From assembly GCA_002898715.1 (NCBI GenBank), contig BEIA01000001.1, forward strand, positions 1,994 to 65,993: a DNA stretch of 64,000 nt. The letters run 5' to 3'. Source of the stretch: a bacterium HR24 (GTDB lineage: Bacteria > Chloroflexota > Dehalococcoidia > SM23-28-2 > HRBIN24). This document shows positions 5,784-64,000 of this stretch, piece by piece. Both the position numbers and the translations under genes were made by a program. The notes under the pieces are model-generated. The model searched no databases, had not been told where the DNA came from, and saw only the letters and a list, made by a program, of their open reading frames with translations. Each line of letters begins with the position of its first letter. The first letter of the stretch is position 1.

Positions 5784-5856
5784 ACTGCGTTGGCCATCGG
5801 CGGGCGCAGGCGCTATAATGAGGGGTGCGAGCGCCAGCAAAGCGGGGGATGGAGCC

Positions 5857-6216
5857 ATGATCAACATGACCGAACGGGCAGCCAGCAAGGCCAAGGAGAT
5901 ACTGGAGCAGAAGGGCATCGGCCCCCAGGGCGGTCTGCGCGTGTTCGTTGTCGGCGGCGGCTGCTCCGGCTACCAGTACGGCATGGCCCTAGCCCGTGAG
6001 GTCGAAGAGGACGACTTCGTCATTGAGAAGGACGGCATCCGCCTGGTGGTGGACCCCGAGAGCGCCGCTCTGCTGGAAGGGGCGGAGATCGACTACGTGG
6101 ACGACCTCATGAAGGCCGGGTTCACCATCTACAACCCCAACGCCGTCCGTACCTGCGCCTGCGGGCACTCCTTCGCCACCGCCGAGGGCGGCGGGGCGCC
6201 CCGGCCCTGCCACTGA
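5857..6216 (+). CDS. Iron-sulfur cluster insertion protein (IscA/ErpA/HesB family)
   Basis: Core RVFVVGGGCSGYQYGM ... CACGHSF with the three conserved Cys; start at MINMTE inside the 5818 ORF. Confidence 0.8.
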   Translation: MINMTERAASKAKEILEQKGIGPQGGLRVFVVGGGCSGYQYGMALAREVEEDDFVIEKDGIRLVVDPESAALLEGAEIDYVDDLMKAGFTIYNPNAVRTCACGHSFATAEGGGAPRPCH

Positions 6217-6367
6217 CGGCATCGGGCACCACTGACGCGCTTGCGGCTCTGGAGCCTGCATCCTCGCTATCTGGACCCCCGGGGCCTGACCGCGCTATGG
6301 CGTTGCCCCTTTACAAGGGCGGGCCGGCCCGCTAGCCTACGAACTGGCCCACCGCCGGAGGTGACCC

Positions 6368-6511
6368 ATGGCCTACTGGATCGTCGTCGGCTCGGAGGAG
6401 AACTTCCGCATCGCTCAAGAGCGAGGTTTCGACATCTTCGGCTTCAACGGCGACGTCACCTCGGCACCGTTGTGGTCCGGTAGGTGGCTCCGCCCAGGCG
6501 TCGCCTGCTGA
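6368..6511 (+). pseudogene. Truncated EVE/PUA-like domain gene fragment (48 codons)
   Basis: MAYWIVVGSEENFRIAQERGFDIFGF resembles the start of EVE-domain proteins, then stops after 48 codons; it lies between the tRNA and the IS fragments, so it is probably a host gene truncated by insertion. Confidence 0.3.
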
Positions 6512-6999
6512 AGGACGCGATCTACCGCGTCGGCCTGGGAAGGAGCGTACCTAGAGACGGCATTCTTGTCCCTAATCACCCCATACTGCCGCTGGCCGCC
6601 GATAAGTGCCATCGCCGGTAGCCGTGCCCGCGACCGCCTGCAGGGCCTTACTTTACACTTGGTCATCAAACTGGTCATCAAAACCTGACCACCCCCTGCC
6701 AGATTTGGGCCGGCCACCCCCAACAGGTCCTGCCCAGGCCTACCGCCATATGACGTGGCGGGGGAGCCGTATCTACTGAAACAGTTGCGAAACAGATGGG
6801 CCGGCGCTGGAACAGTTGGAAACGGTCCGGCAACAAAACTCCGGAGATAAAGTCTGCATATAATGGAAACAGTGTGAAACAGATGGCCCGGCCTCAACAT
6901 GCCCGCTGGCCCTAACAGTCCCGTCGTAGGGAAGGACATGATGAGACGGAGCACGCAAGACCACCGGTTGAGGCCCAGCCCTAAGGCGCATTATGCGCA

Positions 7000-7720
7000 T
7001 TAGACCAGCCGGAGGGTCATGATGGTGTGGGCGAGGATGGCGGCAGCGGTGCGGGTCAGCAGGCCCCGGAAGCTCTTGGCCCTATGGCGAGCAAGGCCCA
7101 GTCGCTCCATGAGCTGCGCCTGCCCCTCTCGGCAGCTGGTCGGCCACGGCCCGCTCATCGACAGCGGCCGGCACAATGGCCTAGGCCCGCACGAGCCTGC
7201 TGGCCAGCTCGCTGCGCAGGGCCAGCCGGAAGCGGCACGTCCACTCGCTGTGGGCGGCATCCCAGCCGAAGCCTGCCACCAGGCCACCAGGCCCCTGCCA
7301 CTGGTCTGCGCCCCGCACCCGGCTGGGGTGCTTGACGGGCAGGGCGGTGGTGTCCACCTGCTGCCAGGGGTCCTCGGGCAGGTTGGCCATCAGGCAGGCC
7401 GGCAGCTCCTCGAAGGCGACGTGCAGCCAGCGCAGGCGACGGGCGAGCTCGCTCTGGCTGGGCAGGTGGGGGAAGCGGTGGCGCCACTCCCGCCTGACCT
7501 CTTCCAGGAAGGCCTTCTCGCTGTGGCAGCCCAGGAGGTGGCGCACCAGGGCGATGGCCAGCAACGTCGGCGTCGCTGCAGGCGGGCTTGGGGCCTGGGC
7601 GGTTGGGGATGCTGACCCTCTCCTCCTCGATGGCGTCGTCAACCAGCACACAAGTGTGGACGAACAGGTCGGCCAGTGGCCGTCAAGACTGGGGGCCTCC
7701 GCAGCTGGGGTTGTCTGCAT
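7000..7720 (-). pseudogene. IS4/IS5-superfamily DDE transposase remnant (frameshifted and internally deleted)
   Basis: ORF 7181-7720 has a DDE_Tnp_1-like N-terminal region (WQQVDTTALPVKH); ORF 7000-7287 in another frame ends with a typical transposase C-terminus (ERLGLARHRAKSFRGLLTRTAAAILAHTIM); total length is too short for an intact gene. Confidence 0.5.
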
Positions 7721-7936: not shown

Positions 7937-8979
7937 CTAGGCCATGTAATGGCTCGAGCCCGCCTGCCCCTGGGGAGCAAGGTGCGGGCCCACCTCCCTG
8001 TAGGACCTGCCCGTCCTGAGCATCCAGAAGACGGCCTTGGCGAGCTTCCTTGCCACCGCCACCCTCGCCTTCTGGGTCCCCTTGCCCACCAGGAGCCGCC
8101 GGTAGAACTCCTGCAGGGGCCCAGGCCGCCCCACGGCGCCCGTGCCCGCCTCCACCAGGGCCCACCTGAGGAAGCGGGAGCCCTGCTTGGTGATGGCGCC
8201 GTGCCTTACCGCCCCTCCCGAGGCGTAGGTGGAGGGCACCAGCCCGGCGTAGCTGGCGAGGTGCCTGGCGCTGGGGAAGCGGGAGACGTCCCCTATCTCG
8301 GCCAGCACCAGGAGGGCAAGATAGTAGCCTAGGCCGGGCACGGTGGTGAGCAAGAGGGCCCGCTCGTCCCTCCTGGCCACCTCCCGCACCCTCCCTGCCA
8401 GCAGCTCAAGCTCCTGCCTGAGGGCCGAGAGCAGCCGCAACAGGCCCCCAAGCTCCTCGCCGTAGGGCTCGGGCAGCCTGAGCCCCGCCAGCCACCCGAG
8501 CCCCTTCCTGGAGAAGGGGGTGGGCATGGGCGGCCGCACCGGCAGCCGGTCCAGGAGGGCGTGGATGCGGTCCTTCACCGCCCTCTGCAGGCCCACCAAG
8601 AAGGCCCGGTAGCGCAAAAGCTCCCTCAGGGCCCTCGTCTCCTTGTCGGCCACGTAGGCCCTCGCCACCAGGTCTGCCCGCATCTCCGGGCCAGGATGTG
8701 GGCGTCCGGCCGGTCGCTTCCCCGGCCTGGCCGAGGCTATGGCTCTTGTCTTGTAGGGATGGACGAGGGTCACCTCCAGCCCTGGTCAGAGAGGAGGCCC
8801 ATGGCCCACTCCCAGGCCCTGGTGGCCTCCAGGGCCACCTTGAGCCCTCCGCTCAGGCCCGCAAGGGCCGCAAGCAACCCCTCGGGGCTGCTCTCGGCCC
8901 TCCCCTGCCTCACGGTCCTACCCCTCTCGTCCACCACCGCCAGGTAGGAGTGCCTTCCCCTCAAGGTCCAGGCCCGCAT
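7937..8979 (-). mobile_element. IS110-family transposase gene, split by a frameshift near 8770
   Basis: ORF 8770-8979 is the IS110 N-terminal DEDD domain (YLAVVDERG...LKVALEATRAWEW); ORF 7937-8773 is the C-terminal IS116/IS110/IS902 domain (VPGLGYYLALLVLAEIGDVSRFPSARHLASYAGLVP); the two frames overlap by 4 nt. Confidence 0.75.
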
Positions 8980-9075
8980 AGAACATCTCTCTGGGGCCTC
9001 CTTTCCCTCAGGGTTTCTCTCTTTACCCCCACTGTAGGGCAGGAGGCCCCCGCCCTTATAACATCACGTAACGCG

Positions 9076-10296
9076 CTAACGCAGCGCTTCGCCCGTCTCC
9101 CGCCCCTCGCCACCCACGAGGCGGTCCAGGAGGCGCATGGCCTCCTCGCTGCCGCCCGCCAGCACGTGCGAGTAGACGTCCAGAGTGGTGGACGGCACCC
9201 GATGCCCCAGCAGCTCGGCAACCACCCGCACGCTCACGCCGTGCCCCAGCAGTAGGGATGCCACCAGGTGCCGCAGGTCGTGTACCCGCAGCCCGGCCAT
9301 GCCCAGCCTGGCCGCGGCCTGCCCCAGGTAGTACTGGACCCGGCGGGCGCTCTCCGGCGCCCCGCCCTCCCTCACGAACACATAATCACCGGGGCTGGGC
9401 TCCCGCCCCATCATCTGTCGCCACGCCGCCGCCTGCCGCTCCAGGGCCCGGCAGGCCATGTCCCCGATAGGGATGGTCCTGTCCGAGCCTGCCTTGGCGC
9501 CCCGCTCGTGCACGCCGCCGCTCGTCCGGCTCAGGGTGCGCCTCACCTGGACCAGCCGCCGCTCCAGGTCCACATCCCCCCAGCGCAGCCCCAGCGCCTC
9601 TCCCAACCGCATGCCCGTCGCCGCTATGAGCGCTATCGCCGGCCCCACCGGCGACCCCTCCACCTCCCTGAGCAGCCGCGCCAGGCCCTCCGGCGACGGC
9701 AGCTCGGGCCTGCGCGGCCGGTACACTCCGGGCCTCACCCGAGCGCACGGGTTGTCTGGGAGCAGCCCCATGCTCACTGCATCGTTCAGGGCCTGCCTCA
9801 GCACGGCGTGGATGTTCCTCACCGAACCCTGGCCCAGGCCCCTCTCCCGCGCCCGGAGCAGCACCGCCTGCACGTCCATCGGCGTCAGCTCGCGCAGACG
9901 CAGGTGCCCGATGACCGGCACCAGGTGGTGCTGCACGACGATCCGCTGCCCCTCCACCGTAGCCGGCGCAAGGCCTCCTTCCCGCATCGCCAGCCACCTC
10001 TCCAGATACGCCGCCACCGTCACCCTCCCCGTCCCCCTCGCCTGCCCCAGCCTCCCCTCGTCCCGCCTGCGCAGCAGCTCCGCCCTAACCCGCTGAGCGT
10101 CCTTGTATGTGCCGCGGACGGTCACCCGTATGTACGTCCGCTTCTTCTGGCGCGAGTCGTAGCCCATGTAGACCCGCACGGACCACGAGTTGCTTCCCCG
10201 CTTCTCGATCCCCTCGGGCACGGCCCACCCCCGACGTGCAGCGTGGGTTGTCCACCAGCGCCATCCCGTCACCGGCCCCGCATCTCCTCCTGCCAC
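9076..10296 (-). CDS. int: Tyrosine-type site-specific integrase (phage integrase family)
   Basis: 406 aa; conserved box II/catalytic region HDLRHLVASLLLGHGVSVRVVAELLGH...TLDVYSHV; AP2-like N-terminus; 3' end faces the tRNA-Arg; true start may be an internal Met. Confidence 0.9.
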   Translation of the reverse strand: MAGGDAGPVTGWRWWTTHAARRGWAVPEGIEKRGSNSWSVRVYMGYDSRQKKRTYIRVTVRGTYKDAQRVRAELLRRRDEGRLGQARGTGRVTVAAYLERWLAMREGGLAPATVEGQRIVVQHHLVPVIGHLRLRELTPMDVQAVLLRARERGLGQGSVRNIHAVLRQALNDAVSMGLLPDNPCARVRPGVYRPRRPELPSPEGLARLLREVEGSPVGPAIALIAATGMRLGEALGLRWGDVDLERRLVQVRRTLSRTSGGVHERGAKAGSDRTIPIGDMACRALERQAAAWRQMMGREPSPGDYVFVREGGAPESARRVQYYLGQAAARLGMAGLRVHDLRHLVASLLLGHGVSVRVVAELLGHRVPSTTLDVYSHVLAGGSEEAMRLLDRLVGGEGRETGEALR

Positions 10297-10393
10297 CCGG
10301 CAGCGGCCACCAGGTGGGCAAGCAGGCGCACGGTCAGCCGCACGAGCGCCTCCAGGTCATCGCCGGACCATCCCCCTGCCTCGGCCATCATCT

Positions 10394-11119
10394 TCAGCCG
10401 CCTTCCCCCGTCTTCCCCTTCCCCTCGCCTCCCCCCTCTTCCGGGGGCCACTCCAGGGCCGACAGCAGCGCCCGCCGCGCCCGTCTCACCCGTTCCTGCC
10501 ACGGCATCACCTCCTCCAGCAGCTCCAGCAGCCTCTCCAGCCACTCGTAGACGTCCCGCGGCGTCCGCCACAGGCTGCCCATATTCTGTTCGAACACATG
10601 TTCGGGTGTCAACGGCCCGGCGCCACCCGTCCCCTCCTGCAGCAGCCCGGCCAGCCGCGATGAGAGCGAAGCCGCGACGGGCCACACCTCCTGCAGGACC
10701 GCCAGCTCCCTGTCGCCGCAGCGCCTGAGCCACTCCTCCACCGCCCGCAGCAGGCGCACCCGCCGGGCGAAGGCGTCCTGGGGATGGCGCCATGCCGGCC
10801 CGGGGAAGCGCTGTCCCTCCTCCCCCTCCCCCAGCTTTTCCCATTCCAGCCCCAGCACCTCTGCCACCGCCCGCAGCTTCGCCTCCGAGGTCCACGCCAC
10901 CTCGCCCCACTCCACCCGCCGGATGTAGTCCGCCACCACACCCTGCCTTGCCCCCTGCTCCAGCAGCCGCCGGCTGGCCATCTCCGCCACCTGCTCCCGC
11001 GAGAGCCCCAGCTGCCGCCGCCGCCGGTAGACAGCCCATGCCCTGGCCGGGGTAACCTCCACAAGGTCCCTGCCCCCCATGCGCCGCCGGCCCCTTCGTC
11101 CCGCAGATCCATTCAACAT
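10394..11119 (-). CDS. HTH (XRE-like) DNA-binding regulator, possible element repressor
   Basis: HTH segment QLGLSREQVAEMASRRL near the N-terminus; adjacent to and co-oriented with the integrase; start may be the internal MGGRDL. Confidence 0.45.
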   Translation of the reverse strand: MLNGSAGRRGRRRMGGRDLVEVTPARAWAVYRRRRQLGLSREQVAEMASRRLLEQGARQGVVADYIRRVEWGEVAWTSEAKLRAVAEVLGLEWEKLGEGEEGQRFPGPAWRHPQDAFARRVRLLRAVEEWLRRCGDRELAVLQEVWPVAASLSSRLAGLLQEGTGGAGPLTPEHVFEQNMGSLWRTPRDVYEWLERLLELLEEVMPWQERVRRARRALLSALEWPPEEGGGEGKGKTGEGG

Positions 11120-11358
11120 AGCCGCCTCCTCGCAGCAGGTCCGCTCGCATCCCGGTCGCTGCTATCGTAAGCCATCACGCCCATCTTCGCCCCACCTCCC
11201 CCGCAGCCGTCGCAGACGGCAGATCTCCGCACACCGCCCCCACCACCCCGGCGCCACACTTCCGGCCGCGCGCCCCCCCTTTGACAACCGCTGCTCGAAC
11301 AGATATGCTGAGTGCACAAGGTCGCGAGTGTCACACGACATGGCATGAGACCCTAGAG
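11120..11358. promoter_or_regulatory. Divergent intergenic region between the regulator and the excisionase-like gene (putative genetic switch)
   Basis: ~240-bp gap between oppositely oriented HTH genes, the typical position of phage or ICE switch promoters; no motifs verified. Confidence 0.25.
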
Positions 11359-11847
11359 ATGCGGTCGCAACAGCCGGGCAGCATCCGCTCCATCGCCGCC
11401 AAGCTCGGCATCTCGCCCACCCTCGTATACCGCATCCTGCACGGCACCGCGAGCCCCGAGAGCATCATGGCCTACGGCCCGCTGGTCAACGCGCTGCGCC
11501 AGGGCAACGGCACACACGATGCCGCCCCGTCCGCCACTGCGGCGGCTACGCCCCGGGGGCACGCCACAACGCGCCACCCGCCGGCAGCTGTAGATACGGC
11601 GCTGACCCCTGCCCAGGCAGCCCGCCTCCTTCAGCTAAGCACGCGGACGGTCTACCGCCTTTGCCGGCGCGGTCTCATCCCCCATGCTCGCATCGGCCGC
11701 CTGTACCGCATCTCGCCGCAGGCCGTCCGCTGGATCCTGGCATCGCGAGGCGCCATCCCCATCCAGATGGCCCAGACAACAGGACTGCTGCCGCCCCGCC
11801 CCGAAGGCGTCCCACCGTCCGCCAGGAAACGAGGTGAAGGTCGATGA
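11281..11847 (+). CDS. Excisionase/MerR-like HTH_17 DNA-binding protein
   Basis: C-terminal LTPAQAARLLQLSTRTVYRLCRRGLIPHARIGRLYRISPQAV matches the excisionase/HTH_17 fold; an earlier HTH-like SIAAKLGISPTLVYRIL is also present; start may be at 11359. Confidence 0.5.
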   Translation: MTTAARTDMLSAQGRECHTTWHETLEMRSQQPGSIRSIAAKLGISPTLVYRILHGTASPESIMAYGPLVNALRQGNGTHDAAPSATAAATPRGHATTRHPPAAVDTALTPAQAARLLQLSTRTVYRLCRRGLIPHARIGRLYRISPQAVRWILASRGAIPIQMAQTTGLLPPRPEGVPPSARKRGEGR

Positions 11848-12926
11848 CGACCCAGCTGCCCACCGAGCAGCGTGACGCCCCCCAGAGCCCGGCCCCCTGG
11901 CCCATGGCCATCGCCCTCGACGAGATCGAGGCCCAGGCCCGCTACAACGCCATGGTGGCCGACCGCATCGCCGCCGTCATCCGTGACCACATGCAGCCGG
12001 GCGTCCACTACACCTACAAGCTGGGCGAGACCTACTTCCCCAGGCCCGTCCTGCTCGATGCCGGCGTCGCCTACATCATGAGCGTCCTGCGGCTCGTGCC
12101 GCGCCACCACGTGGAGCTCGCCCTGCGCGAGCCGGTGCCCGTCCAGCGCCCCGACGGCAGCACGGAGCACCGCCTGCTCATAAAATACGTCGTTCGGGCA
12201 GAACTGTGGCACATCTCCCCCGACGGCAAGGAGCGGCTGGTGGCCGAAGGGCTAGGCAGCGCCAGCTCTTTCGAGACCCGCCACCTCTACCGCTGGGTGT
12301 CGGACCGGGAGCTACCCGCCGGCGCCGACCCCTCCCGGCTCCCCAGCCGTGGCCAGGGCAGCTCGGCCCGCTACCGGGTCTACAACCCCGACCCCGACGA
12401 CCTGGACAACACCATCCTCAAGATGGCCGCCAAGCGCGCCGAGGCGGACGCCATCCGCCAGCTGCCGGGCGTCCTGGAGGCGTGCGCCCTCCTGCCCGAT
12501 GCCGAGATCCAGGCAGGGGGGCAGCCCCCACGCTCCCCGGCCCCACGCAAGCAGGAGTCACAAGGGGAGGCCCAGAGCGCCCCGTCACAGCCCCCACCCC
12601 GGGCGCAGCCGGGCAGCGCTCCTCGCCTAGCCGCCCCACAACAGGCCCCCACACAGTCGGAGAGGCGGCAGCGCCCCTCCCAGACCGAGGTGACCGAATT
12701 GGCGGCGGAGAGGGCCCTCATAGACATAGCCCACGACCTCTCGCCAGACGTCCCCGTCCACGTCACCATCGCCCGCCTGCTGGGCGTGCCCGAGCCCGAA
12801 AGGGGCAGGGCCGCTATCGTCCGTTGGCTGCAGCAGCACGGCCGCACCTGGCAGGACGCCCTCCAGCAGGTGCGGGAGAAGGTCGCCGCCCAGAGGCCGC
12901 AAGAGGGCCGGGGCGGCGCCAACTGA
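11844..12926 (+). CDS. Putative phage single-strand-annealing protein (ERF/RecT-like), uncertain
   Basis: 360 aa; segment DLDNTILKMAAKRAEADAIRQLPGV resembles the conserved KMAxKRA motif of phage SSAPs; C-terminal half is low-complexity and Pro/Gln-rich; sits among replication genes. Confidence 0.35.
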   Translation: MTTQLPTEQRDAPQSPAPWPMAIALDEIEAQARYNAMVADRIAAVIRDHMQPGVHYTYKLGETYFPRPVLLDAGVAYIMSVLRLVPRHHVELALREPVPVQRPDGSTEHRLLIKYVVRAELWHISPDGKERLVAEGLGSASSFETRHLYRWVSDRELPAGADPSRLPSRGQGSSARYRVYNPDPDDLDNTILKMAAKRAEADAIRQLPGVLEACALLPDAEIQAGGQPPRSPAPRKQESQGEAQSAPSQPPPRAQPGSAPRLAAPQQAPTQSERRQRPSQTEVTELAAERALIDIAHDLSPDVPVHVTIARLLGVPEPERGRAAIVRWLQQHGRTWQDALQQVREKVAAQRPQEGRGGAN

Positions 12927-13081
12927 GGACGGCACGAAGGGGAAAGGAGGTGAACGGGCCGCATTAAATTGAAGGCCTGCGACCACCCCGTTGGCCGCAG
13001 GCCCCCAAAACCTATCCTGAGACCCCTAGCGGCCTCAGGATAGCACAATCCTCGCCCCATGACAAGAGCGGCCCCCGCATC

Positions 13082-14416: not shown

Positions 14417-14476
14417 TAGACATGCTCTATCACAAAAAGATTGACCTACGGGCAATCTGTCTGATGAAGGCCCCTC

Positions 14477-14637
14477 GCCAACACTTGCGCCAACACTTGC
14501 ACGCAGCCAAGTCGTATTTGGCCGCAGCGCCTCGGGAAGTGTTGGCAGATACAACACTTCCGGAAGTGTTGGTAGATACAACACTTGGGGGCCAACGGCC
14601 GGTCTCCAAATACGGCCGGGGCGCAAGTGTTGGTGGG
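14477..14637. repeat. Iteron-like cluster of 8-mer CAACACTT/AAGTGTTG (putative origin of replication)
   Basis: GCCAACACTTGCGCCAACACTTGC, then two tandem 27-bp units GAAGTGTTGG(C/T)AGATACAACACTT each with an internal inverted repeat, then GCAAGTGTTGG; 8 copies within 160 bp, plus one more at 14945. Confidence 0.6.
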
Positions 14638-15701: not shown

Positions 15702-15729
15702 CGTGTGCCACGACGTAGGGAGGCAGAGC

Positions 15730-16213: not shown

Positions 16214-16225
16214 AGGAGGTAGTCG

Positions 16226-43703: not shown

Positions 43704-43739
43704 GGAAGGGGGATGTCTCCACTGCTGCCGGGAGGATGC

Positions 43740-53765: not shown

Positions 53766-53901
53766 GCCCGGAGGCCGCAGCAGTCCTCCCCCTGACCCCA
53801 ACCCCAACCCCAACCGAGATACCACCATCCTCGCCCCTAGTCCCGGGGGCATAAGCCTGTCCGAACGGGGCACGAATCGAAGGGCAGGCGGAGGTGAACA
53901 T

Positions 53902-55155: not shown

Positions 55156-55167
55156 GGGGAGGGGGCC

Positions 55168-55902: not shown

Positions 55903-55918
55903 GGAGGGGGGTGAGGCC

Positions 55919-57493
55919 ATGAACGGCCCCATCCCCTACCTCCCTCCCGCCGCCGAGCGGGTCCTGGAGCAGGCCCGCAGGCTCTTCCTCCTGCGGGACC
56001 TGCGCTCGGTGGCGGCGGGGGCCGACCGCCTCTCCTTCCGCCAATGGGCGGAGGGGGTGCGCGGCTACCCCCAGGCCGCCGAGGCCAACGAGGACCTCGG
56101 CGGCATCCTCGGCGGGGAGCCGGTGAGGGACGCCTTCTTCCTCGTCACCTCGCCGGCGCCGCAGCTGGTGCCGCAGCCCCCACAGGGCACCGAGCTGCTG
56201 CACCGCATCCTGGGGGAGGCCATCACCACCCCGGGCTTCGGTCGCCTGCGGGAGACGGCGGGCGATGACCCGGTGGTGGCTGCGTACGGCGCCTCCCACT
56301 GGGCGCGGGAGCTCGTCTCGCAGCTCCCGGAGTCCATCAAGGAGGCCGCCCGCGAGGCAGCCGCTGCCCAGGGGGAGGTGCAGGAGGCCCGGGAAGCCCT
56401 GCAGCAGCTCGCTGCCCTCAAGGCCTCCCTCGAGGAGCAGGGCCGGGAGGTGCCCGGCGAGCTGGTGGAGCAGCTCGCCCAGGCCGAGGCAGCCGTCCAG
56501 GCAGCCACCGCTAGGGCCCAGGCGGCCTCCTCGACCACCCTCGCCCTCCTGGAGGAGAGGGCAGCAGAGGTGCGGGCCGCCGCCTCCCGAGCCGCCGAGG
56601 CGGCCTCCACCCAGGGCCGCCAGTTCGAGGCCTCGGTGAGGGGCTTCGACCTGGCGGCAGGGGGCGAGGGGGCCGTCTCGCCCGAGGCGGCGAGGGCCTG
56701 GATGGAGGTCCTCGCCCGCCATCCCCGCCTGGAGGCCCTGGCTCGCGAGCTGGGCTGGGCCCGCCGCCTGGTGGGCTCCCTCTGGCGCCAGTCGCCACAC
56801 GCCCGCACGGAGCTGGTGGGCTACCGCTCCGGCTACCTGCGGGCCGAGGAGCTGGCGCCCTGGGAACTGGCCCTCATGGTGGGGCCGGCGCCTGCCCGGC
56901 TCGACTTCCTGCGCCGGGCTGCCGAGGGTGACATCCGCCACCGGCAGCTGCAGGGCAGGGAGAAGATGGGACGGGGGCCGCTGGTGGTGGTCAGGGACGA
57001 GTCGGGCTCCATGCAAGGGGGTCCGCATGCCCTGGCCGTCGCCATCGAGTGGGCCCTCCTGGAGGTCTGCCGCCGGGAGGGCAGGCCCCTCGTCTCCATC
57101 TGTTTCTCCGGGCCGGGGCAGGTCCGGGCCTGGAGGGCGCCCACAGGCGGGCGGCCCGACCACGAAGGGCTGCTCCGCCACCTCTCCCACTTCTACGGGG
57201 GAGGGACGGAGCCCTACCAGGCCCTCTCCCTCGCCCTCCGGGAGGTGGAGGGGAGCGCCGAGATGAGGCGGGCCGACATCCTCCTCATCTCGGACGCCAT
57301 CTTCCCACCTCCGCCGGAGGAGGTGCGACGGCTGCTGGAGGCCGCCCGCCGGCGCCGCCCCCTGCACCTGGCCGCCGTCCTGGTGGGAACGGTGCCGGGA
57401 CCCCTGGAGGGGCTGGCACACCCCATCGTCAGGGTGTCAGACCTCCTCCAGGAGAGGGAGCGGCTGCGGGAGGCCCTCTCCGCCGTCCTGTAA
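55919..57493 (+). CDS. VWA-domain protein (MoxR partner)
   Basis: C-terminal VWA/MIDAS-like block LVVVRDESGSMQGG ... ILLISDAIF; long coiled-coil/Ala-rich N-terminal half. Confidence 0.65.
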   Translation: MNGPIPYLPPAAERVLEQARRLFLLRDLRSVAAGADRLSFRQWAEGVRGYPQAAEANEDLGGILGGEPVRDAFFLVTSPAPQLVPQPPQGTELLHRILGEAITTPGFGRLRETAGDDPVVAAYGASHWARELVSQLPESIKEAAREAAAAQGEVQEAREALQQLAALKASLEEQGREVPGELVEQLAQAEAAVQAATARAQAASSTTLALLEERAAEVRAAASRAAEAASTQGRQFEASVRGFDLAAGGEGAVSPEAARAWMEVLARHPRLEALARELGWARRLVGSLWRQSPHARTELVGYRSGYLRAEELAPWELALMVGPAPARLDFLRRAAEGDIRHRQLQGREKMGRGPLVVVRDESGSMQGGPHALAVAIEWALLEVCRREGRPLVSICFSGPGQVRAWRAPTGGRPDHEGLLRHLSHFYGGGTEPYQALSLALREVEGSAEMRRADILLISDAIFPPPPEEVRRLLEAARRRRPLHLAAVLVGTVPGPLEGLAHPIVRVSDLLQERERLREALSAVL

Positions 57494-57614
57494 CCGCCAC
57501 CCCTGATCCCTGTGCGTCCATGACGCCGCGAGGCGCACAGAAGGGGACAGGGGTCCCCACCGGCGTCGGCCCGGCCGGCGGGGTGAAGCTATGGGCCAGG
57601 AGGTGATATGTGAT

Positions 57615-59072
57615 ATGATACTGAACCTCCTACCCCCGCTTCACCGCCCTGCCTACATGGTGGGCGGGGCGGTGCGAGACATGCTCCTGGGGAGACCCCT
57701 CCACGACATCGATATCGTCGTGGAGGGGGACCCCCATGAGGCCGCCCGCGAGATCGGTGCTGCCCTCGCGGGCGCCCTGGTCCCCCTCAAGGGCCTGGTG
57801 CGGGTGGTGGCCACCCATGTGCAGGTGGACATCACCCGCCTTTCGGGGCCTATCGCCGAGGACCTGGCCCGCCGCGACTTCACCATCAACGCCATGGCCC
57901 TCCCGCTGGGATCCGGGAGGGAGAAGGGCCTGCCCCCGGTCCTGGACCCCACGGGTGGCAGGGACGATCTCCGCCGGGGCGTCGTGCGACTCGTCTCGCC
58001 CGATGCCCTGGCAGCCGACCCGGTGCGGCTCCTGCGGGGGCCCAGGCTCGCCCTCGAGCTGGGCTTCCGCGTAGAAGGGCACACCGCCCGGGCCATCAGG
58101 GCGCATGCCCAGCTCCTCGGCAGGGCAGCCCCTGAGCGGCTGGCGGAGGAGCTGCGCCGGCTGCTCCACCTGCCGGACGGCGGGCGGGGGATGGGCCTCC
58201 TCCACCACCTTGGCCTCCTCGTACAGCTCTTCCCCGAGCTGCAGGAGGCCGAGGGGGTGGCCCAGCCCTACCCCCACCGGCAGGACGTCCTCGCCCACCT
58301 GCTGGACGCTGCCAGGTGGGCCGACGTCATCCTCGGCCGCTCGGCGACGGCCGAGGAGGAGCGCGTCCGCCGGGCCACCGGCCACCTCATGACCCCACAG
58401 GTGCACGAGCGCCTGGGGGAGGAGGTGGCCCACGGCTGGCAGCAGGCGGCCCTCCTGCGGTTGGGGGCACTCCTGCACGATATAGGCAAGCCCCGCAGCC
58501 GTAGGAGAACCCAGGACGGCCGTGTCCACTTCTATGGACACGACCGCCTGGGCGCCGAGATGGCAGCAGCCATGGCGGCGCGCCTCCGGCTCCCCGCCAG
58601 GGCCGGCACCTTTCTCATGGCCCTGGTGAGGGAGCACATGCGGCCGGTGGGGCTCGCCGCCGCCCCCGGCCTGCCCTCCCGCCGTGCCCTCTACCGCCTC
58701 CACCGCGACGCCGGCGGCACCGCCACCGCCCTGGCCCTCCTGTTCGTGGCCGACACCCTGGCCACGAGCGGGCCCGGGGACCGGGAGCGGCTGGGGCGGG
58801 CGCTAGAGGTGGCCCGCCACCTCGTGCTCTACGGCCACGAGCAGGACGCGGTGCCCAGGCTCCTGTCCGGCCACGACGTCATGACCGCCCTGGGCATCGG
58901 GCCTGGGCCCCTCGTGGGCCGGGTGCTGCGGGCCGTGCAGGAGGCGGCAGCCGCGGGGGAGGTATGCAGCAAGGAGGAGGCGCTGGAGCTGGCCAGGCGC
59001 ATAGCCCAAGCTCCCGCGCCCTCCCAAGAGCCCATCCCTGCCCCTGGCCCCGGGGGTGAAGCCTGCCCGTAA
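57615..59072 (+). CDS. CCA-adding tRNA nucleotidyltransferase / poly(A) polymerase-family enzyme with HD domain
   Basis: Pol-beta NTase head GGAVRDMLLGRPLHDIDIVVEG, RRDFTINAMAL, HD motif ALLHDIGKP...HFYGHD; start at MILNLL with AGGAGGTG RBS (ORF extends to 57591). Confidence 0.75.
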   Translation: MILNLLPPLHRPAYMVGGAVRDMLLGRPLHDIDIVVEGDPHEAAREIGAALAGALVPLKGLVRVVATHVQVDITRLSGPIAEDLARRDFTINAMALPLGSGREKGLPPVLDPTGGRDDLRRGVVRLVSPDALAADPVRLLRGPRLALELGFRVEGHTARAIRAHAQLLGRAAPERLAEELRRLLHLPDGGRGMGLLHHLGLLVQLFPELQEAEGVAQPYPHRQDVLAHLLDAARWADVILGRSATAEEERVRRATGHLMTPQVHERLGEEVAHGWQQAALLRLGALLHDIGKPRSRRRTQDGRVHFYGHDRLGAEMAAAMAARLRLPARAGTFLMALVREHMRPVGLAAAPGLPSRRALYRLHRDAGGTATALALLFVADTLATSGPGDRERLGRALEVARHLVLYGHEQDAVPRLLSGHDVMTALGIGPGPLVGRVLRAVQEAAAAGEVCSKEEALELARRIAQAPAPSQEPIPAPGPGGEACP

Positions 59073-59105
59073 GGGGCACAAATCGAAGGGCAGGCGGAGG
59101 TGAAC

Positions 59106-59822
59106 ATGCGTAGGTGGGTCTTCTTCTTCCTGCTGGGGGGCATCCCGGGGCTCCTCCTGGCACTCCTGCTGGGAGCTGTCCCGGCGCCCCCCACCCTGCG
59201 GCGCCTCCTCCTGGTGGGGGGCGCCGGCCTGCTGGGCTCCCTCTTCCTGGGGGCCATAGCAGGCAACCTGGGGCTCAGGGCCACGGGGCCCGAGGACCCC
59301 ACGGCGGCCTTCGCCGCCGCCGGCGCGGTGGCCGTGGCCGGCGCAGTCGTCACCCTGGCAGTCATCACCGCCATGGCCGTCAGGGCTGCCCGCCGGCCCG
59401 GGCAGCCTGAGCAGGCCACCCCGGCTGCCCCGGTCGCCAGGGGGAGCGAGGGCGCCCAGGGCGGCCCTGCTCCTGTGGTGGCCGTGCACGGTGCCGCCCC
59501 GGAGCAGGGGGCCCGGCTGGAGGCCCTGCTCCGGCCGGTCTCGTCCCTCCTGGGCCAGCCCCTGGTGGTGGTCATCACCCCAGGGAGACCCCGGGGGTGG
59601 CACCTGGAGAAGGGCATCCTCCTCCAGGTGCCACGTCCCCAGGAGCGGCTCGTGCTTGCCGCCCTGGAGGACGCCCTCCTAGGCGGGGGCAGTGAGCGCC
59701 CTCGCCGCGAGAGGTCGCCTCGCCAGCTCCCCGAGGGAGGCGGGCCGACTGTGTCGCGCCGCCCTCGGCCCGAGGACATCGCCGCGGCCGTGGGTGGCGC
59801 CACGACGGAGGGGGAGGCATAG
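59106..59822 (+). CDS. Membrane protein, paralog B
   Basis: MRRWVFFFLLGGIPGLLLALLLGAVPAPPTLRRLLLVGGAGLLG...; near-identical to the product of 47496-48242; leader GGGGCACAAATCGAAGGGCAGGCGGAGGTGAAC upstream. Confidence 0.55.
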   Translation: MRRWVFFFLLGGIPGLLLALLLGAVPAPPTLRRLLLVGGAGLLGSLFLGAIAGNLGLRATGPEDPTAAFAAAGAVAVAGAVVTLAVITAMAVRAARRPGQPEQATPAAPVARGSEGAQGGPAPVVAVHGAAPEQGARLEALLRPVSSLLGQPLVVVITPGRPRGWHLEKGILLQVPRPQERLVLAALEDALLGGGSERPRRERSPRQLPEGGGPTVSRRPRPEDIAAAVGGATTEGEA

Positions 59823-59826
59823 CAGC

Positions 59827-61065
59827 ATGCACCCACCCCACTACCCCTCCGGCCAGGACCTGGAGCGGCTGGCCGAGAGGGCCATCGTCTTCCTCAACCG
59901 GTGGACGACCCTCGTCCCCTGCTTCTGGGGACCGTCCTCGGAGGGGAAGACCTACTTCGTGCGGGCCATGGCCGCACGCCTGGGCGCCTGCTTCCTGCAC
60001 GTCATCCTCAAGAACATGAAGCCCGATGACGTGCTGGGCGCCCAGGTCCTCACCCCATCAGGTGAGCTCAGGGTCGAGCTCTCCTGGTGGGTCAAGGAGG
60101 CCATGGGCGCCGCCCAAGGGGGGCGTAAGGTCGTCGTCTTCCTGGACGAGCTGGACAAGGCCGACGACGACCTCATCGCCCCCATCCTCACCTTCCTCCG
60201 GGACCGCACCGTCTACGGCGTGGCCCTGGAGGACGAGGAGGCCATCAGGGAAGGGAAGGAGGAGCGGCGCATCTACCTCGTCGCCGCCTGTAACCCGGGC
60301 GCTTTCGACGAGGCGATGCGCTGCCGGCTCGCCTTCATCTGGTGGCCCACCGACGCTGCCGGCTACTACAGCGTGGCCGGCAGCTCGCCCCTGGCGAGGG
60401 CAGCCGTCGAGAAGGCCGCCCCGCTGCTCGCCGAACGGCGCCGGCAGGCCGAGCGGCAGCCACCCCCGATGCCGGAGTTCACCAAGGCCACGGTAGACGC
60501 CCTCCGGCGGGGGGAGCAAGAGCTGCTACGCATGGCCCGCGACGAGCGCTGCTTCATCCTCTCCCTCCTCATGCCGCCCTCCCTCGCCGAGGCGGTGGAG
60601 GAGGAGATGGCCCACCGGCAGGAGCAGCCGCCGCTGGACCTGCTGGTGGAGCAACCCCAGGAGCTGGCGAGGCTCCTTGCCCGCCTGGAGCTGCCCGAGT
60701 TCGTGGCCACCGCCGCCTCGGCCCTCGGGCATGCCCTGAAGGTGGGCAAGAGGGAGGCACTCCCGGCCATCACCGCCGCCATCTACCGCGGCGCCCTCGC
60801 CCCCGTCGCCGCGGGCGGCAAGGATGCCGGCGCGCGGCGCGAGGCGCTGGAGCGTCTATCGGCCTGGATGGCCGAGCGGCCCGACAAGGAGCCGCTGGGG
60901 GAGCTGGTGGCCGACGCCCTCTCCCGGCTCGGAGGCGAGGCCTTCTTTGAAGCCCTCGCCAGGGACGGGCTGCTCCGCCTCCAGGAGGACGGCAGCCTCG
61001 GCGGCGAGCTGGTGGAGCTCCTGCAGGCCCTGCAGGAGCCCGTCCAGGGGGCGCTCATCCCATGA
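59827..61065 (+). CDS. MoxR/CobS-like AAA+ ATPase (AAA_5)
   Basis: Walker A GPSSEGKTYFVRAMAARLG, Walker B VVVFLDELDKADDDLIAPILTFL; followed by a VWA/metallopeptidase partner. Confidence 0.7.
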   Translation: MHPPHYPSGQDLERLAERAIVFLNRWTTLVPCFWGPSSEGKTYFVRAMAARLGACFLHVILKNMKPDDVLGAQVLTPSGELRVELSWWVKEAMGAAQGGRKVVVFLDELDKADDDLIAPILTFLRDRTVYGVALEDEEAIREGKEERRIYLVAACNPGAFDEAMRCRLAFIWWPTDAAGYYSVAGSSPLARAAVEKAAPLLAERRRQAERQPPPMPEFTKATVDALRRGEQELLRMARDERCFILSLLMPPSLAEAVEEEMAHRQEQPPLDLLVEQPQELARLLARLELPEFVATAASALGHALKVGKREALPAITAAIYRGALAPVAAGGKDAGARREALERLSAWMAERPDKEPLGELVADALSRLGGEAFFEALARDGLLRLQEDGSLGGELVELLQALQEPVQGALIP

Positions 61066-62393
61066 GCCACCCCCTCCTGGGCAAGGTCTTGGCTGCCCTG
61101 CCGCCGGCCCTGGCGGGCCTCTTCGAGACGGGCCTCCTCGCCATCGAGATACGCGACGGCCCCGAGGCCCGCCGGCCCTACGCCATGACCGTCTACCGGC
61201 GGGGCAGCTACACGTTCGCCATCGTCCTCGACGCCCACGCGGTGGCAGTGGCGTCGAGGACGGCCCTGCAGGCCATCGTCCGGCACGAGGTGGGCCACAT
61301 CGTCCTGGGCCACTTCGGGCCGGAGCACGAGGCCTGCCACCTCCCCTGCAACACCCTCGCCGAGGAGGCGGAGGTCAACGGCTTCCTCTCCCGGGAGGAG
61401 CGGGAGGCGGTGGCCGACGCCTGCACGGTCCTCGCCCTCAGGAGCCTCGCGAGGCGCCTCGGGCCGGCCATCGCCATGCTCCTTGCGGGCGCCGGCTTCA
61501 GGGCGAAGGTCGTGGACCCGGACGAGGTGCGGGCCATGGCCGGCCTCTCGCCTGACCTGCCGCCCCGTTGGAGGTGGCTCCATCCCCTCCTGCACCCTAT
61601 GCCGTCCGATCGGGAGCTGCCGGGTCTGGACGCCCACGGGGCGGGCGGCCCAGGCGCAGGGGTCGGGGCAGGAGAAGGGGACCACCTGGGCGAGGGCTAC
61701 CCCTGCGGAGGCGTCCAGGTGGAGGAGGGCGCCACGGAGGAGGCCGCCGGCGTGGCGGCAGCCCTTGCCGCCTCGCCCAGGGCGCAGGCAGCGCTGGAGG
61801 GACAGGGCCTGCGCGGATGGGGCAGCGGGGCGGGCAGCGCGACCATGGAGTGGCGCCCTCCCCTCCTGCCGCGCTGGGCACAGGAGGTGCTGGAGTGGGC
61901 ACGCAAGCTCGCCCACCGCACCTGGGCCCTCCGCCGCATCCGCCACCGGCCCCGCATCGACTTCCTGCGAGCCACCGGCCTCTACCGCCCCGACCGGGGC
62001 TACGACCGGGTGCGGGCCGGAGGGGAGGTGGTCTTCGTGGTGGACGCCTCGAGATCCATGGTCCAGGACGTCCACTATGCCCACCCGGCCATAAGCTTCC
62101 TCCTCCACCAGGGCATCACCGTCAGGTTCATCTGCGGCGATGTGCAGGTGGAGGTGGACACGCTCTTGCGGCCGGGAGATGAGATCCCCGCCCCCAAGGG
62201 GTGCGGGGGCACCGATATCTGCCCGCTCATGGAGCGGGCAGCCTCCTACCGGCCACACGGGATATGCGTCTACACCGATGCCGCCATCCCGCGCTGGCCA
62301 CCCCAGCCCGAGGGGGCAGAGGTCCTCTGGGTCGTCCCGGAGGGCATCACGCCCCCTTACGGGCAGGCCGTCCACTGGCGGCCGGAGAGCTAG
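61062..62393 (+). CDS. Putative metallopeptidase (HExxH, DUF2201-like) fused to a VWA-like domain (MoxR partner)
   Basis: HEVGHIVLGH zincin-like motif in the N-terminal half; C-terminal VWA-like block VVFVVDASRSM ... GGTDICPLM; ATGA overlap with the upstream ATPase. Confidence 0.6.
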   Translation: MSHPLLGKVLAALPPALAGLFETGLLAIEIRDGPEARRPYAMTVYRRGSYTFAIVLDAHAVAVASRTALQAIVRHEVGHIVLGHFGPEHEACHLPCNTLAEEAEVNGFLSREEREAVADACTVLALRSLARRLGPAIAMLLAGAGFRAKVVDPDEVRAMAGLSPDLPPRWRWLHPLLHPMPSDRELPGLDAHGAGGPGAGVGAGEGDHLGEGYPCGGVQVEEGATEEAAGVAAALAASPRAQAALEGQGLRGWGSGAGSATMEWRPPLLPRWAQEVLEWARKLAHRTWALRRIRHRPRIDFLRATGLYRPDRGYDRVRAGGEVVFVVDASRSMVQDVHYAHPAISFLLHQGITVRFICGDVQVEVDTLLRPGDEIPAPKGCGGTDICPLMERAASYRPHGICVYTDAAIPRWPPQPEGAEVLWVVPEGITPPYGQAVHWRPES

Positions 62394-62414
62394 GGAACTA
62401 CAGGAGGTGAGAGG

Positions 62415-62954
62415 ATGAGGTCAGAACTCCCCCTCCCCCAACAGGTGTGGGAGGCCCTCTATGGCCTCGCGGCCGAGGCCCGGCGGCAGGTGGAGAAGGA
62501 CGGGGGGATGAACCCCATCGTCGTGGCCATCGGCCGCGAGCAGGCCATCGTGATGGAGGCCAGTCACTGGGACGAGGCCTCCAAGCACGAGACCATGCGC
62601 ACCGCCGGGGCCATAGCGGCCCGCATCTCGCCCATGGCCGTGGCCCTGGTAGCCGACATTTACTACCTCGCCCTCACCCCCTCGGAGGGGGCGGCCGACT
62701 TCCCTCCCTCCCTCGCCGACGACCCGCGGTCGGTGGAGGCGGTGTGCCTGGCCGTGGTCGACCGGCGGGGGAACAGCTTCGTGCGCCTCTGGCCCTACCG
62801 GCGAGAGGTGCACGGGCTGGATGTGAGGACCGTCTGGCTGGACGAGGGAGAGGTCGGCCACCCGCCCCAGGACGCAGGGAGCATCGTCTCCCCCGTCGTG
62901 GCCAGCTTCTGGCAGGGGGTGGACGAGGCAACGCCCCCGCCTCATCAGGGATGA
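62415..62954 (+). CDS. Hypothetical protein
   Basis: 179 aa; GGAGGTGAGAGG RBS; no motifs. Confidence 0.35.
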   Translation: MRSELPLPQQVWEALYGLAAEARRQVEKDGGMNPIVVAIGREQAIVMEASHWDEASKHETMRTAGAIAARISPMAVALVADIYYLALTPSEGAADFPPSLADDPRSVEAVCLAVVDRRGNSFVRLWPYRREVHGLDVRTVWLDEGEVGHPPQDAGSIVSPVVASFWQGVDEATPPPHQG

Positions 62955-63247
62955 TGGCGGGACCTCCTGCCCCCTCCCACCTCGTCACCGAGGCCCTCGC
63001 CCTAGGGGCACGCCCCCGCCTCCAGATCTCCCTCAGGGAGACCTCAGACCCGGAGGGGGACCTGGCGCGGGCGCGTCCCCTCTTCCGCCTCCTCCAGTCC
63101 CACCCCGGCAAGGACGCCGTGGTGGTGACGGTCCATACGGCAGACGGCAGGAGGCGTCAGGTCCTCTTCCGCTGCTGCGTGGACAAAGATCTACTCTCAG
63201 CCATCGCGGCGGTCATGCGCCGCGACAAACAGGGGGTGAGAGCTTAG
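62951..63247 (+). CDS. Hypothetical protein
   Basis: 98 aa from MMAGPP, overlapping the previous stop by 4 nt. Confidence 0.3.
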   Translation: MMAGPPAPSHLVTEALALGARPRLQISLRETSDPEGDLARARPLFRLLQSHPGKDAVVVTVHTADGRRRQVLFRCCVDKDLLSAIAAVMRRDKQGVRA

Positions 63248-63443
63248 CTGCCCCGAGCGCTAGATAGCAGGCAAGACATCCCAGTGCAGGCGCCAGACCA
63301 GTGCATGACAAGCTAGTACAGCAAACGCCACCCCAAGGCACCCCGTGCCCCGATGACACGGCAGCCACATACCAGTTGAGGCCACGACCGTTCAGGCTAG
63401 CTCACCATACGCTACAAGCTTGCAACCACAGGAGGTGAGACGC

Positions 63444-64000
63444 ATGCGCAAGGATGCCTTGCAGGACCTCAAAGACTTCCTCTTCCGCAAGATCGCCGAC
63501 CTGGGCTGGGCGCCCCAGGAGCAACTGGCCCGCCTTGCCCAGAAAGAGATGGGCGCCGATGCCCTCTCGGTCCACCAGGCCCTCCGCTTCCTGGTCCGCC
63601 AGGACTACGTCACCCTCAAGGAGGGGCCCGATGGCCAGAAGGGCTACGAGGTGCTGCCACCCTCCACCTCTCAGAAGGGCCGCCAGGGGACCAGGTATGG
63701 CCAGTGGTCGCCCATCACGGTGGTCACGGCTACCTTTATCACGCACTCCCTGGCGCCCATGACCAGGCCGGGGGACGACACCCACTTCTTCTTCCCGCGC
63801 ATCCCCGACGGTCGCATCATCATCCCCCGCGCCAACATTATCGCCATGCTCAAGCGGGCATGGCTCCTCCTCGACAAGGAGGACGGCGTGGCCCAGGCAG
63901 CCCTCAAGCGCTGGGACGTCTACCCCGTCCTCTTCCCCCAGGACGCGGCCGCCGAGACGGTGGTCAGGCGCGTGGTGCGGCCCGACGGCCGCACCACCGA
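63444..64000 (+). CDS. Hypothetical protein, 3'-partial (runs off the window); not in the ORF track
   Basis: ATG at 63444 preceded by AGGAGGTGAGACGC; open frame with no stop to 64000 (MRKDALQDLKDFLFRKIADLGWAPQEQLARLAQ...). Confidence 0.4.
   Translation, partial: MRKDALQDLKDFLFRKIADLGWAPQEQLARLAQKEMGADALSVHQALRFLVRQDYVTLKEGPDGQKGYEVLPPSTSQKGRQGTRYGQWSPITVVTATFITHSLAPMTRPGDDTHFFFPRIPDGRIIIPRANIIAMLKRAWLLLDKEDGVAQAALKRWDVYPVLFPQDAAAETVVRRVVRPDGRTT

Follow-up and report, generated by a model that had tools for sequence, protein, structure and literature searches.

Downstream of a tRNA-Arg(CCT) gene, the metagenome-assembled genome (MAG) 'bacterium HR24', which represents a hot-spring Chloroflexota, passes from housekeeping genes to genes of a mobile element, and the question is where this element begins and ends and to which kind of element it belongs. 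The initial annotation of the 64,000-nucleotide stretch analyzed here (hereafter, the window) described a mosaic inserted at the tRNA gene which combined integrative and conjugative element (ICE), plasmid, and phage hallmarks and fitted no single known architecture. According to our analysis, positions 6448–64000 (57.55 kb, continuing past the window end) are very probably the left part of one putative ICE of ~160 kb in the HR24 chromosome. Its target is the gene of an EVE-domain protein located immediately upstream of dnaA, not tRNA-Arg.

The G+C content is ~70% across the window, with lower-GC patches at 16–19.5 kb and 42–47 kb. Genes were called with a codon model trained on long open reading frames (ORFs) with high GC3, which gave 63 calls, the last of them (g63) at 63420–64000. 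The calls were annotated with Pfam, PHROGs, NCBIfam, and PADLOC; 58 of them lie right of the tRNA, of which 42 were included in the PHROGs scan and the other 16 were annotated with Pfam only. The tRNA-Arg(CCT) gene is the sole tRNA gene in the window, and an Rfam scan of the window revealed nothing besides it. Coordinates of the features are collected in Table 1.

Insertion site and ends of the element

Element-free versions of the locus were obtained by an exact look-up of the YceI protein, which yielded six contigs (L003–L008) of the same species from metagenomes and one MAG. Their gene order is hrcA-grpE-dnaK-ubiA-yceI-tRNA-iscA-Pyr_excise (DenV)-EVE-dnaA-obg-nadD, and the mobile genes are absent. 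In blastn alignments, window bases 1–6447 were 97.9–99.7% identical to these contigs, and then homology stopped. The break, 663 bp to the right of the tRNA, follows ...GACATCTTCGGCTTCAA and falls in codon 26 of the EVE-domain gene, which has 148 codons. Since homology to the empty sites runs to 6447, iscA, the DenV-like remnant, and the first 26 EVE codons are chromosomal. The housekeeping flank hrcA-grpE-dnaK-ubiA-yceI-iscA and the tRNA-Arg(CCT) gene had been recognized correctly, and the start of the element, previously placed at the end of the tRNA gene (5784), moves to the right. The chimeric 47-aa ORF spanning the left junction (attL) is annotated as GBD12009.1 (HRbin24_00009). Within the chromosomal flank, the gene of a pyrimidine-dimer glycosylase (Pyr_excise/DenV-like) is shortened: a stretch of 467 bp is missing in the window at 6302/6304 and present in L003 at 8795–9261.

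The tRNA 3' end was not found repeated anywhere in the window. Neither the breakpoint flank nor the EVE sequence downstream of it recurs in the window, and the right end therefore lies outside it, as had been supposed. To reach the right junction, homologues of the intact EVE protein were searched for, and the members of its 90% cluster were listed. Two proteins, P0133 (138 aa, HRbin24_01343 of HR24) and P0135 (145 aa), consist of a foreign N-terminus fused to EVE residues 24–148. The gene for P0135 is located on two Logan contigs (L055/L056) that derive from runs DRR101363 and DRR101365; the exact window protein 62415–62954 was found in run DRR101365 as well. A look-up of the last complete window gene had yielded Logan contigs of 3 kb only. 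The order on these contigs is CpaF (partial), TadZ, CpaB/SAF (minus strand), 340 bp of non-coding DNA, the 3' part of the EVE gene, dnaA, obg, and nadD, and in the chromosomal part, the identity to an empty-site contig is 99.5%. The element is flanked by a direct repeat of 11 bp, TTCGGCTTCAA, which is present as a single copy in the empty site (attB). The element thus has defined ends, with the repeat at both junctions, and is absent from homologous chromosomes, as is characteristic of ICEs.

The same data decide against tRNA-Arg as the attachment site. The window is colinear with the empty sites to 6447, and the right junction (attR) holds the core of the EVE gene; neither an insertion at the tRNA 3' end nor the far repeat of this end, proposed earlier as the mark of attR, was found. 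Against genome contigs, the best match of the EVE protein was 93% identical, and its relatives belonged to Chloroflexota/Dehalococcoidia-like MAGs; no element genes were seen at those loci.

The insertion sits ~530 bp upstream of the dnaA start (window 6447 / L055 3110–3650). Because it lies near dnaA, ~160 kb of foreign DNA adjoins the probable origin region. At this locus, dnaA is followed by obg and nadD, not by dnaN.

Both ends carry structured arms that share two motif types, TGGTCATCAA in tandem and GAAACAG/CTGTTTC repeats. Four of the five window copies of the latter fall at 6778–6882, and the right-arm copies of the left-arm motif types lie at L055 2900–3100. The left arm is conserved beside the integrase gene (int) in related contigs L073, L077, and L154. 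By analogy with arm-binding integrases, the shared motifs are candidate arm-type sites for Int or Xis. Both insertion sequences (ISs) reported earlier are present, and both are decayed, one being an IS982 fragment and the other a frameshifted IS110. The IS982 remnant was inserted secondarily and separates int from the arm. An origin of the left junction by IS-mediated cointegration was considered and rejected: the remnants have int on one side and the arm and core, both intact, on the other, and they are absent from the relatives.

Size, unity, and distribution of the element

The last window gene, HRbin24_00067, lies on the same 137,298-bp contig as HRbin24_00009, and ~73 kb follow the window there. 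On contig JAVQSQ010000002.1 (180,292 bp) of a related MAG, the start of the HRbin24_00067 homologue is at 73,175. The right core follows ~107 kb further right, at ~180,290, and the contig ends 2 bp past it. Adding these ~107 kb of the relative to the 57 kb in the window gives a total of ~164 kb.

Close relatives of the element were found at other sites and in other hosts. In GCA_025062275.1 (L057 9593), the right end is 98.6% identical and abuts a truncated amt gene at TTGAAGCCGAA; this host and the HR24-type chromosome have a single housekeeping stretch in common, with an identity of 76.5%. In the amt insertion, the core, the same as in HR24, encodes FGFN of the Amt signature. A scan of metagenomes for the integrase revealed 93%-identical integrases on contigs of 118 kb and 338 kb (L073/L077). 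The left 11 kb of these contigs are 95.8% identical to window 9099–20173, int directly adjoins the arm, and the IS remnants are absent. The two contigs are identical to one point (11700), where one enters an SBP_bac_5 gene and the other the proA/proB region, the insertion there being at the end of a 111-aa gene beside proA/proB. JGI metagenome 3300002851 has the core TTCGAGGGCAA at both junctions, that on the int side (L154, 881) and that on the Tad side (L071, ~40–60), the latter junction lying beside a transketolase-like gene. As the variant core occurs at both, the int end and the Tad end act as the two ends of one element. Overall, the family uses at least five sites with short shared cores (EVE, amt, the SBP gene, the proA/proB side, and the transketolase-like side); the cores seen were TTCGGCTTCAA, TTCGAGGGCAA, and TTCGAGAAGAA, with the consensus TTCGNNNNNAA. 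In the TTCGAGGGCAA variant, the last ~200 nt of the left arm differ, and the integrase is 93% identical.

The large size (~160 kb), the lower-GC patches at 16–19.5 and 42–47 kb, two Tad-type gene sets, and an unseen 66 kb would agree with a tandem composite of at least two elements formed by accretion, or with an ICE lying beside an unrelated island. Such an arrangement is quite improbable in view of the following observations. The window contains one integrase and one copy of the core, the left and right arms share their motif types, and the same variant core is present at both ends in 3300002851. Moreover, distant parts of the window are tied together by paralogues and by a repeated leader motif (described below). 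Both paralogous pairs are diverged; one (16334–16606 / 62951–63247) encodes a small protein of 90–98 aa, and the other (47496–48242 / 59100–59822) a membrane protein of ~240 aa, with the DNA 76–88% identical. The comparison with element-free loci, named in the initial annotation as a possible refutation, moved the boundary but did not break the gene set up into smaller elements; the view of a single large integrated element carrying integration, conjugation, and plasmid-like modules holds.

Several points weigh against the reading as one ICE. The total length is extrapolated from a relative which is ~90% identical in the shared part, and a segment of ~66 kb (93.6–159.4 kb of JAVQSQ010000002.1) is unseen, so that a second element, a second integrase, or other surprises might lie there. 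In the HR24 copy, the two ends sit on different contigs, the left one (HRbin24_00009) on that of 137,298 bp and the right one (HRbin24_01343) on a contig of 13,125 bp. The IS remnants beside int indicate some decay. No excised circle or joined site (attP) was seen; two guessed attP ORFs were absent from the protein collection, which is a weak test. Finally, the relaxase described below is a putative one, called from one Pfam match, synteny, and a motif.

Conjugation, maintenance, and the question of phage genes

Table 1. Features of the window and of the element junctions. Positions refer to the window unless a contig is named.
Feature	Position	Strand	Remarks
HrcA, GrpE, DnaK, UbiA-family prenyltransferase, YceI	left 5.6 kb		Chromosomal housekeeping genes
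tRNA-Arg(CCT)	5709–5784		
IscA/HesB-type gene	5857–6216		Directly right of the tRNA; chromosomal
attL core TTCGGCTTCAA	6437–6447	+	Within the EVE gene, codons FGF + AA
attL			...GACATC TTCGGCTTCAA CGGCGAC...
attR	core, L055 3110–3120		...CAGTGGAG TTCGGCTTCAA GAGCACC...
attB			...GACATC TTCGGCTTCAA GAGCACC... (right flank GAGCACCCGCC)
attP, predicted junction			...CAGTGGAG TTCGGCTTCAA CGGCGACGTCACC...
Left arm	6448–6980	+	TGGTCATCAAA twice at 6660–6682; three GAAACAGTnnGAAACAGATGG-type repeat units at 6777–6892
IS982-family transposase remnant	7000–7720	-	Broken ORFs; NF033520, E 9e-12; absent in L073/L077/L154
IS110-family transposase pseudogene	7937–8990	-	Frameshifted; absent in relatives
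Tyrosine integrase	9076–10221	-	Reads toward attL; Pfam; phrog_1, E 4e-70
Putative helix-turn-helix (HTH) regulator	10394–11080	-	No profile match; divergent from 11359–11847
Two-HTH protein with HTH_17 excisionase-type domain	11359–11847	+	Pfam, PHROGs
Protein matching PHROG 10048 alone (function unknown)	11844–12926	+	No NCBIfam match
RepA/DnaB-like AAA_25 ATPase	13082–14416	+	C-terminal winged HTH; Pfam, PHROGs
Iteron field	14476–14955		CAACACTTG/CAAGTGTTG, including a 27-nt palindromic unit twice; TRF
Two small Hfq/LSM-like proteins	15703–16213	+	Weak Pfam matches
Single-chain restriction-modification (RM) enzyme, R-M-S fusion, Type IIG-like	16603–19344	-	HSDR_N-type nuclease, N6 methylase, specificity domain
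DinG/Rad3-like helicase	19517–21187	+	PADLOC best match: type IV-A CRISPR-associated DinG, full length, E 2e-73
Tad-like set	21189–25467	+	REC + ParA-type TadZ/CpaE, CpaF/TadA ATPase (T2SSE), TadB and TadC platform proteins (T2SSF)
LysM + M23 peptidase, UvrD/PcrA-like helicase	26576–29034	+	Pfam, PADLOC
Putative relaxase, Replic_Relax (PF13814) + winged HTH	29055–30797	-	Pfam; PD..ExD motif; adjoins the coupling protein gene
VirD4-type coupling protein	31253–33922	-	T4SS-DNA_transf, TraG-D_C, DUF87
VirB4-like ATPase + TrsD/TraD-like protein	35505–38067	-	VirB4 at 35505–37370; P-loop_TraG/AAA_10
Other mating-pore genes	38070–43462	-	Pfam
ParMRC-like partition locus	43471–45581	-	Ribbon-helix-helix ParR-like protein 43740–43955; ParM actin-like ATPase 43927–45000
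TTGACCCTS clusters flanking parMR	43471–43694 and 45183–45581		
Toxin-antitoxin pair	48242–48738	+	75-aa upstream ORF; ParE-like toxin 48502–48738
Two-hairpin leader, ~85 nt, three copies	50240–50325, 53821–53905, 59023–59107	+	Before starts 50323, 53902, and 59100
DnaG-like primase	52156–53220	+	CHC2 zinc finger + Toprim; Pfam, PHROGs
Accessory block	53902–62393	+	Pfam, PHROGs, PADLOC
Three conserved hypothetical genes	62415–64000	+	The last (HRbin24_00067) runs past the window

The tyrosine integrase comprises a SAM-like N-terminal domain and a catalytic domain (Phage_integrase) with the R, HxxR, and Y residues present. Together with the excisionase-like protein, also supported by Pfam and PHROGs, it provides the element with its own integration gene and excision helper at one end, as in ICEs. 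The neighboring protein encoded at 11844–12926 had been considered similar to single-strand annealing proteins; with PHROG 10048 as its sole match, this identity was not confirmed. A paralogue of this protein occurs further right in the relatives.

The putative relaxase matched PF13814 with 34.1 bits vs. a gathering cut-off of 25.3, and no relative of it was found in PDB. PF13814 corresponds to MobC in CONJscan, and type IV secretion systems (T4SSs) of the FATA type with VirD4 and MobC relaxases have been described (PMC5357655). For VirB4, the best NCBIfam profile was that of the Gram-positive CD1110 family (conju_CD1110; E 2e-83), with 281 bits vs. a cut-off of 325 and, thus, below it. The best relatives of VirB4 are found in Actinomycetota, Chloroflexota, and Bacillota, with no more than 40% identity to any plasmid record. 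The remaining mating-pore genes encode a 575-aa Ala/Gly/Ser-rich protein, PrgI/VirB3-like and T4SS-pilin-like proteins, a lipoprotein-like protein of 174 aa, an SLT+M23 hydrolase, and a TrbL_4/VirB6-like protein. No Pfam match to an outer-membrane T4SS component (VirB7/9/10-type) was obtained among the window proteins. A coupling protein (type IV coupling protein, T4CP), VirB4, and mating-pore genes are therefore all present, as expected for an ICE. The relatives of VirB4, the lack of outer-membrane parts, and the cell wall hydrolase suggest that the T4SS belongs to the monoderm MPF_FATA class, in agreement with the Gram-positive type proposed before. Four PLSDB plasmids with the closest VirB4 relatives (L050, L051, L152, and L153) were all typed as 'non-mobilizable' by MOB-suite, although each of them has genes for VirB4 and T4CP, and one or more of them a gene for a Replic_Relax protein.

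The element also possesses a set of maintenance genes of the plasmid type, identified from sequence: an iteron replicon, a type II partition locus, and a toxin-antitoxin pair. Five exact copies of CAACACTTG are present in the window, all at 14479–14955, vs. 0.11 expected from shuffles, so the iteron field is a candidate replication origin. The AAA_25 protein, some homologues of which are fused to DnaG-type primase domains, may be the initiator. TTGACCCTS occurs in six window copies, all around parMR, vs. 0.78 expected from shuffles. The initial reading of these genes was confirmed by profile matches, namely AAA_25 for the RepA-like ATPase with iterons, as well as those of the DnaG primase, ParMR, the ParE-type toxin-antitoxin pair, and the Type IIG-like RM enzyme; the T4SS components VirB4, T4CP, PrgI, pilin-like and VirB6-like proteins, and SLT+M23 hydrolase were supported in the same way.

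Such a complete kit (RepA with iterons, ParMRC, and toxin-antitoxin), as well as the location of the closest T4SS relatives in annotated records on plasmids, could point to a conjugative plasmid which is mainly extrachromosomal and only occasionally integrated. This is improbable: all copies with a visible end were integrated, in five chromosomal contexts, and no ORF of the attP type has been recorded. An integrase, an Xis-like protein, and structured attachment arms belong to the element itself. Moreover, the difference between such a plasmid and an ICE is a matter of degree (PMC4489591).

A further question was whether phage genes are part of the element, which the initial annotation had regarded as a conjugative phage-plasmid-like hybrid integrated at tRNA-Arg. 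Of the phage hallmarks, the integrase, the Xis-like protein, and the primase were retained: PHROGs matches in the window were limited to integrase, excisionase, primase, helicase, and ATPase families. No match to capsid, terminase, portal, tail, packaging, or lysis proteins was found in the window by PHROGs for 42 of the 58 calls and by Pfam for the rest. Ten large proteins encoded right of the window in the relatives likewise included no virion protein in a PHROGs scan. Precomputed Pfam tables for ~30 kb beyond the window in the relatives list SSB, HicA, Rce1-like, AbiEii, TadE/TadG, PIN/Phd, DruA, and similar proteins, and no virion gene. A scan of IMG/VR with two right-part proteins gave no close relative. 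Hence, no virion or lysis genes, which would mark a prophage or a phage-plasmid, were present in the sequence covered. The integrase, Xis-like protein, primase, and plasmid modules, together with the unsampled 66 kb, are compatible with a hybrid; the tRNA is not the target, and there are neither structural, packaging, or lysis matches in the window or the sampled relatives nor IMG/VR relatives, which makes this hybrid at tRNA-Arg highly improbable. There is hardly more than a very slight chance that virion or particle genes are located in the remaining ~66 kb and turn the element into one both conjugative and packaged.

An ICE accounts for every module found in the window, and no new architecture is needed. 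The following life cycle may be proposed from the gene content. The tyrosine integrase and the HTH_17 Xis-like protein would recombine the two cores and release the element as a circle. Through the CAACACTTG iterons, the RepA-like ATPase would then maintain this circle, possibly aided by the DnaG-like primase, by ParM/ParR on the TTGACCCTS repeats, and by the ParE-type pair. The PF13814 (MOBC-like) relaxase would nick the circle at an origin of transfer (oriT), and the UvrD-like helicase may unwind the DNA. The VirD4-type T4CP would then pass the strand to the FATA-type T4SS composed of VirB4, PrgI, the VirB6-like protein, and the SLT+M23 hydrolase, while Tad-type pili may give contact between the cells. 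In the recipient, the integrase would insert the element at short matching cores. Excision to a circle and transfer between cells are thus predicted abilities of the element, for which the use of at least five insertion sites and the 98.6% identity across hosts that are 76.5% identical give indirect evidence.

Tad genes, cargo, and comparison with known elements

The window Tad set comprises TadZ, TadA, TadB, and TadC only. In the relatives, a second Tad locus is located at the right end (L055 3–2713; L072 411–13915) with the order CpaB-TadZ-CpaF-TadB-TadC-Flp-...-TadE-TadE-TadG. A prepilin peptidase was seen neither in the window set nor in the right-end locus of the relatives.

The two Hfq/LSM-like proteins, encoded between the replication module and the RM gene, are unusual cargo, and the RM gene itself sits in a lower-GC patch. 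A type IV CRISPR system was rejected, since the DinG-like helicase is its sole match and repeat searches of the window revealed no array, nor were cas genes present in the window. The accessory block encodes a bpMoxR ATPase, a zinc-ribbon protein, a VWA protein, a CCA-adding/poly(A) polymerase-HD enzyme (57591–59072), a membrane protein (the paralogue of 47496–48242), an AAA_5 ATPase, and a DUF2201 VWA-like protein, including two MoxR/AAA-VWA pairs. In the MoxR/VWA/CCA block, PADLOC matched none of the known defence systems. Together with the RM enzyme and the DinG-like helicase, the MoxR/VWA pairs and the CCA-adding enzyme are cargo that probably serves defence or counter-defence. The relatives encode, ~4.5 kb past the position of the window end (L052 10267–11397; L070 4965–6095), a protein of 376 aa that contains the ligase-type motif KxDG (EKLDGTN). 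This protein, called a ligase by its motif alone, and the CCA-adding enzyme hint at an RNA-repair pair.

The repeated leader is located directly upstream of the ribosome-binding site and start codon of three operon-leading genes. Copies were also found in the relatives (L052 1439–1514; L062 ~1887–1968 and 5558–5641; L066 ~5569). Hairpin 1 is GCCCCTGGCCCCGGGGGC; in hairpin 2, the loop of 19 nt, GAAYGGGGCACRAATCGAA, is conserved. One of the copies has compensatory changes in a stem (GCCCTCCCC/GGGGAGGGC vs. GCCTGCCC/GGGCAGGC), and in the minimum free energy folds, the Shine-Dalgarno sequence is partly paired. The motif had no match in Rfam and is a candidate cis-regulatory leader of the element.

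The closest known systems are ICEs and conjugative plasmids with monoderm-type T4SS, characterized by MPF_FATA, VirD4, and MOBC/PF13814 (Guglielmini et al., PMC4027160; Coluzzi et al., PMC5357655; Ghinet et al., PMC3218068). The HR24 element resembles monoderm FATA ICEs in having VirB4, PrgI/VirB3-like, VirB6-like, and SLT+M23 proteins, a VirD4-type T4CP, Replic_Relax, and a tyrosine integrase with an Xis-like protein. It differs from them in its thermophilic Chloroflexota host, size of ~160 kb, two Tad sets, several short-core sites, and a VirB4 that is at most 40% identical to plasmid records and falls below the NCBIfam cut-off. The best VirB4 match (40%) was found on the linear plasmid unnamed2 of Embleya sp. 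NBC_00896 (NZ_CP108778.1). This plasmid shares the PrgI-VirB4-T4CP-replication-relaxation block and has a SAF/CpaB-CpaF-TadB-TadC-TadE/TadG locus ~8 kb from the T4SS block. On the other hand, it is extrachromosomal, linear, and harbored by an actinomycete, encodes a wall hydrolase of the NlpC/P60 type, and is listed as 'non-mobilizable' in PLSDB; its relaxase-like protein aligns weakly with that of the window (27%, E 0.04). Since the Embleya plasmid has both, the pairing of T4SS and Tad genes is not unique to the HR24 element. Nor is the link general, because no Tad genes were found beside VirB4 on Rubrobacter and Miltoncostaea plasmids. We found nothing specific in the literature on Tad pili in monoderm conjugative elements.

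SXT/R391 elements are integrated conjugative elements with replication genes, ParM-type partition, and a toxin-antitoxin module (PMC4489591, PMC2654960); they differ from the HR24 element in being proteobacterial, with an MPF_F T4SS, a MOBH relaxase, a single site (prfC), and a size of ~100 kb. With this precedent, and that of FATA systems with MobC (PMC5357655), the earlier statement that no single known architecture covers these genes no longer stands. Phage-plasmids of the P1, N15, and SSU5 types share plasmid replication, partition, and toxin-antitoxin modules with the HR24 element. They carry genes for capsid, tail, and packaging, and usually none for a T4SS. The HR24 element, unlike them, has a T4SS, and no virion gene was found in the parts of it that were covered.

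The phylum of its host, the size, and the multi-site integrase make the element notable. It does not constitute a new category; its 'hybrid' look is normal for ICEs with plasmid-like maintenance. As the related actinobacterial systems are typed 'non-mobilizable', standard tools probably under-count such T4SS and relaxases. It is conceivable, though doubtful, that the FATA T4SS, the MOBC-like relaxase, and Tad pili, a conserved pairing which recurs on the Embleya plasmid, constitute an unrecognized pilus-assisted type of conjugation in monoderm Terrabacteria, an idea that we regard as likelier than a packaged hybrid. Systems of this kind are called 'non-mobilizable' by the MOB-typing tools in current use.

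To our knowledge, conjugation has barely been described in Chloroflexota. The present data provide one well-delimited member of a family of very large conjugative elements in thermophilic members of this phylum, with both junctions, an empty site, and several alternative sites. The occurrence of a near-identical element in hosts which differ in about one-quarter of their housekeeping nucleotides points to active gene flow in hot-spring communities.

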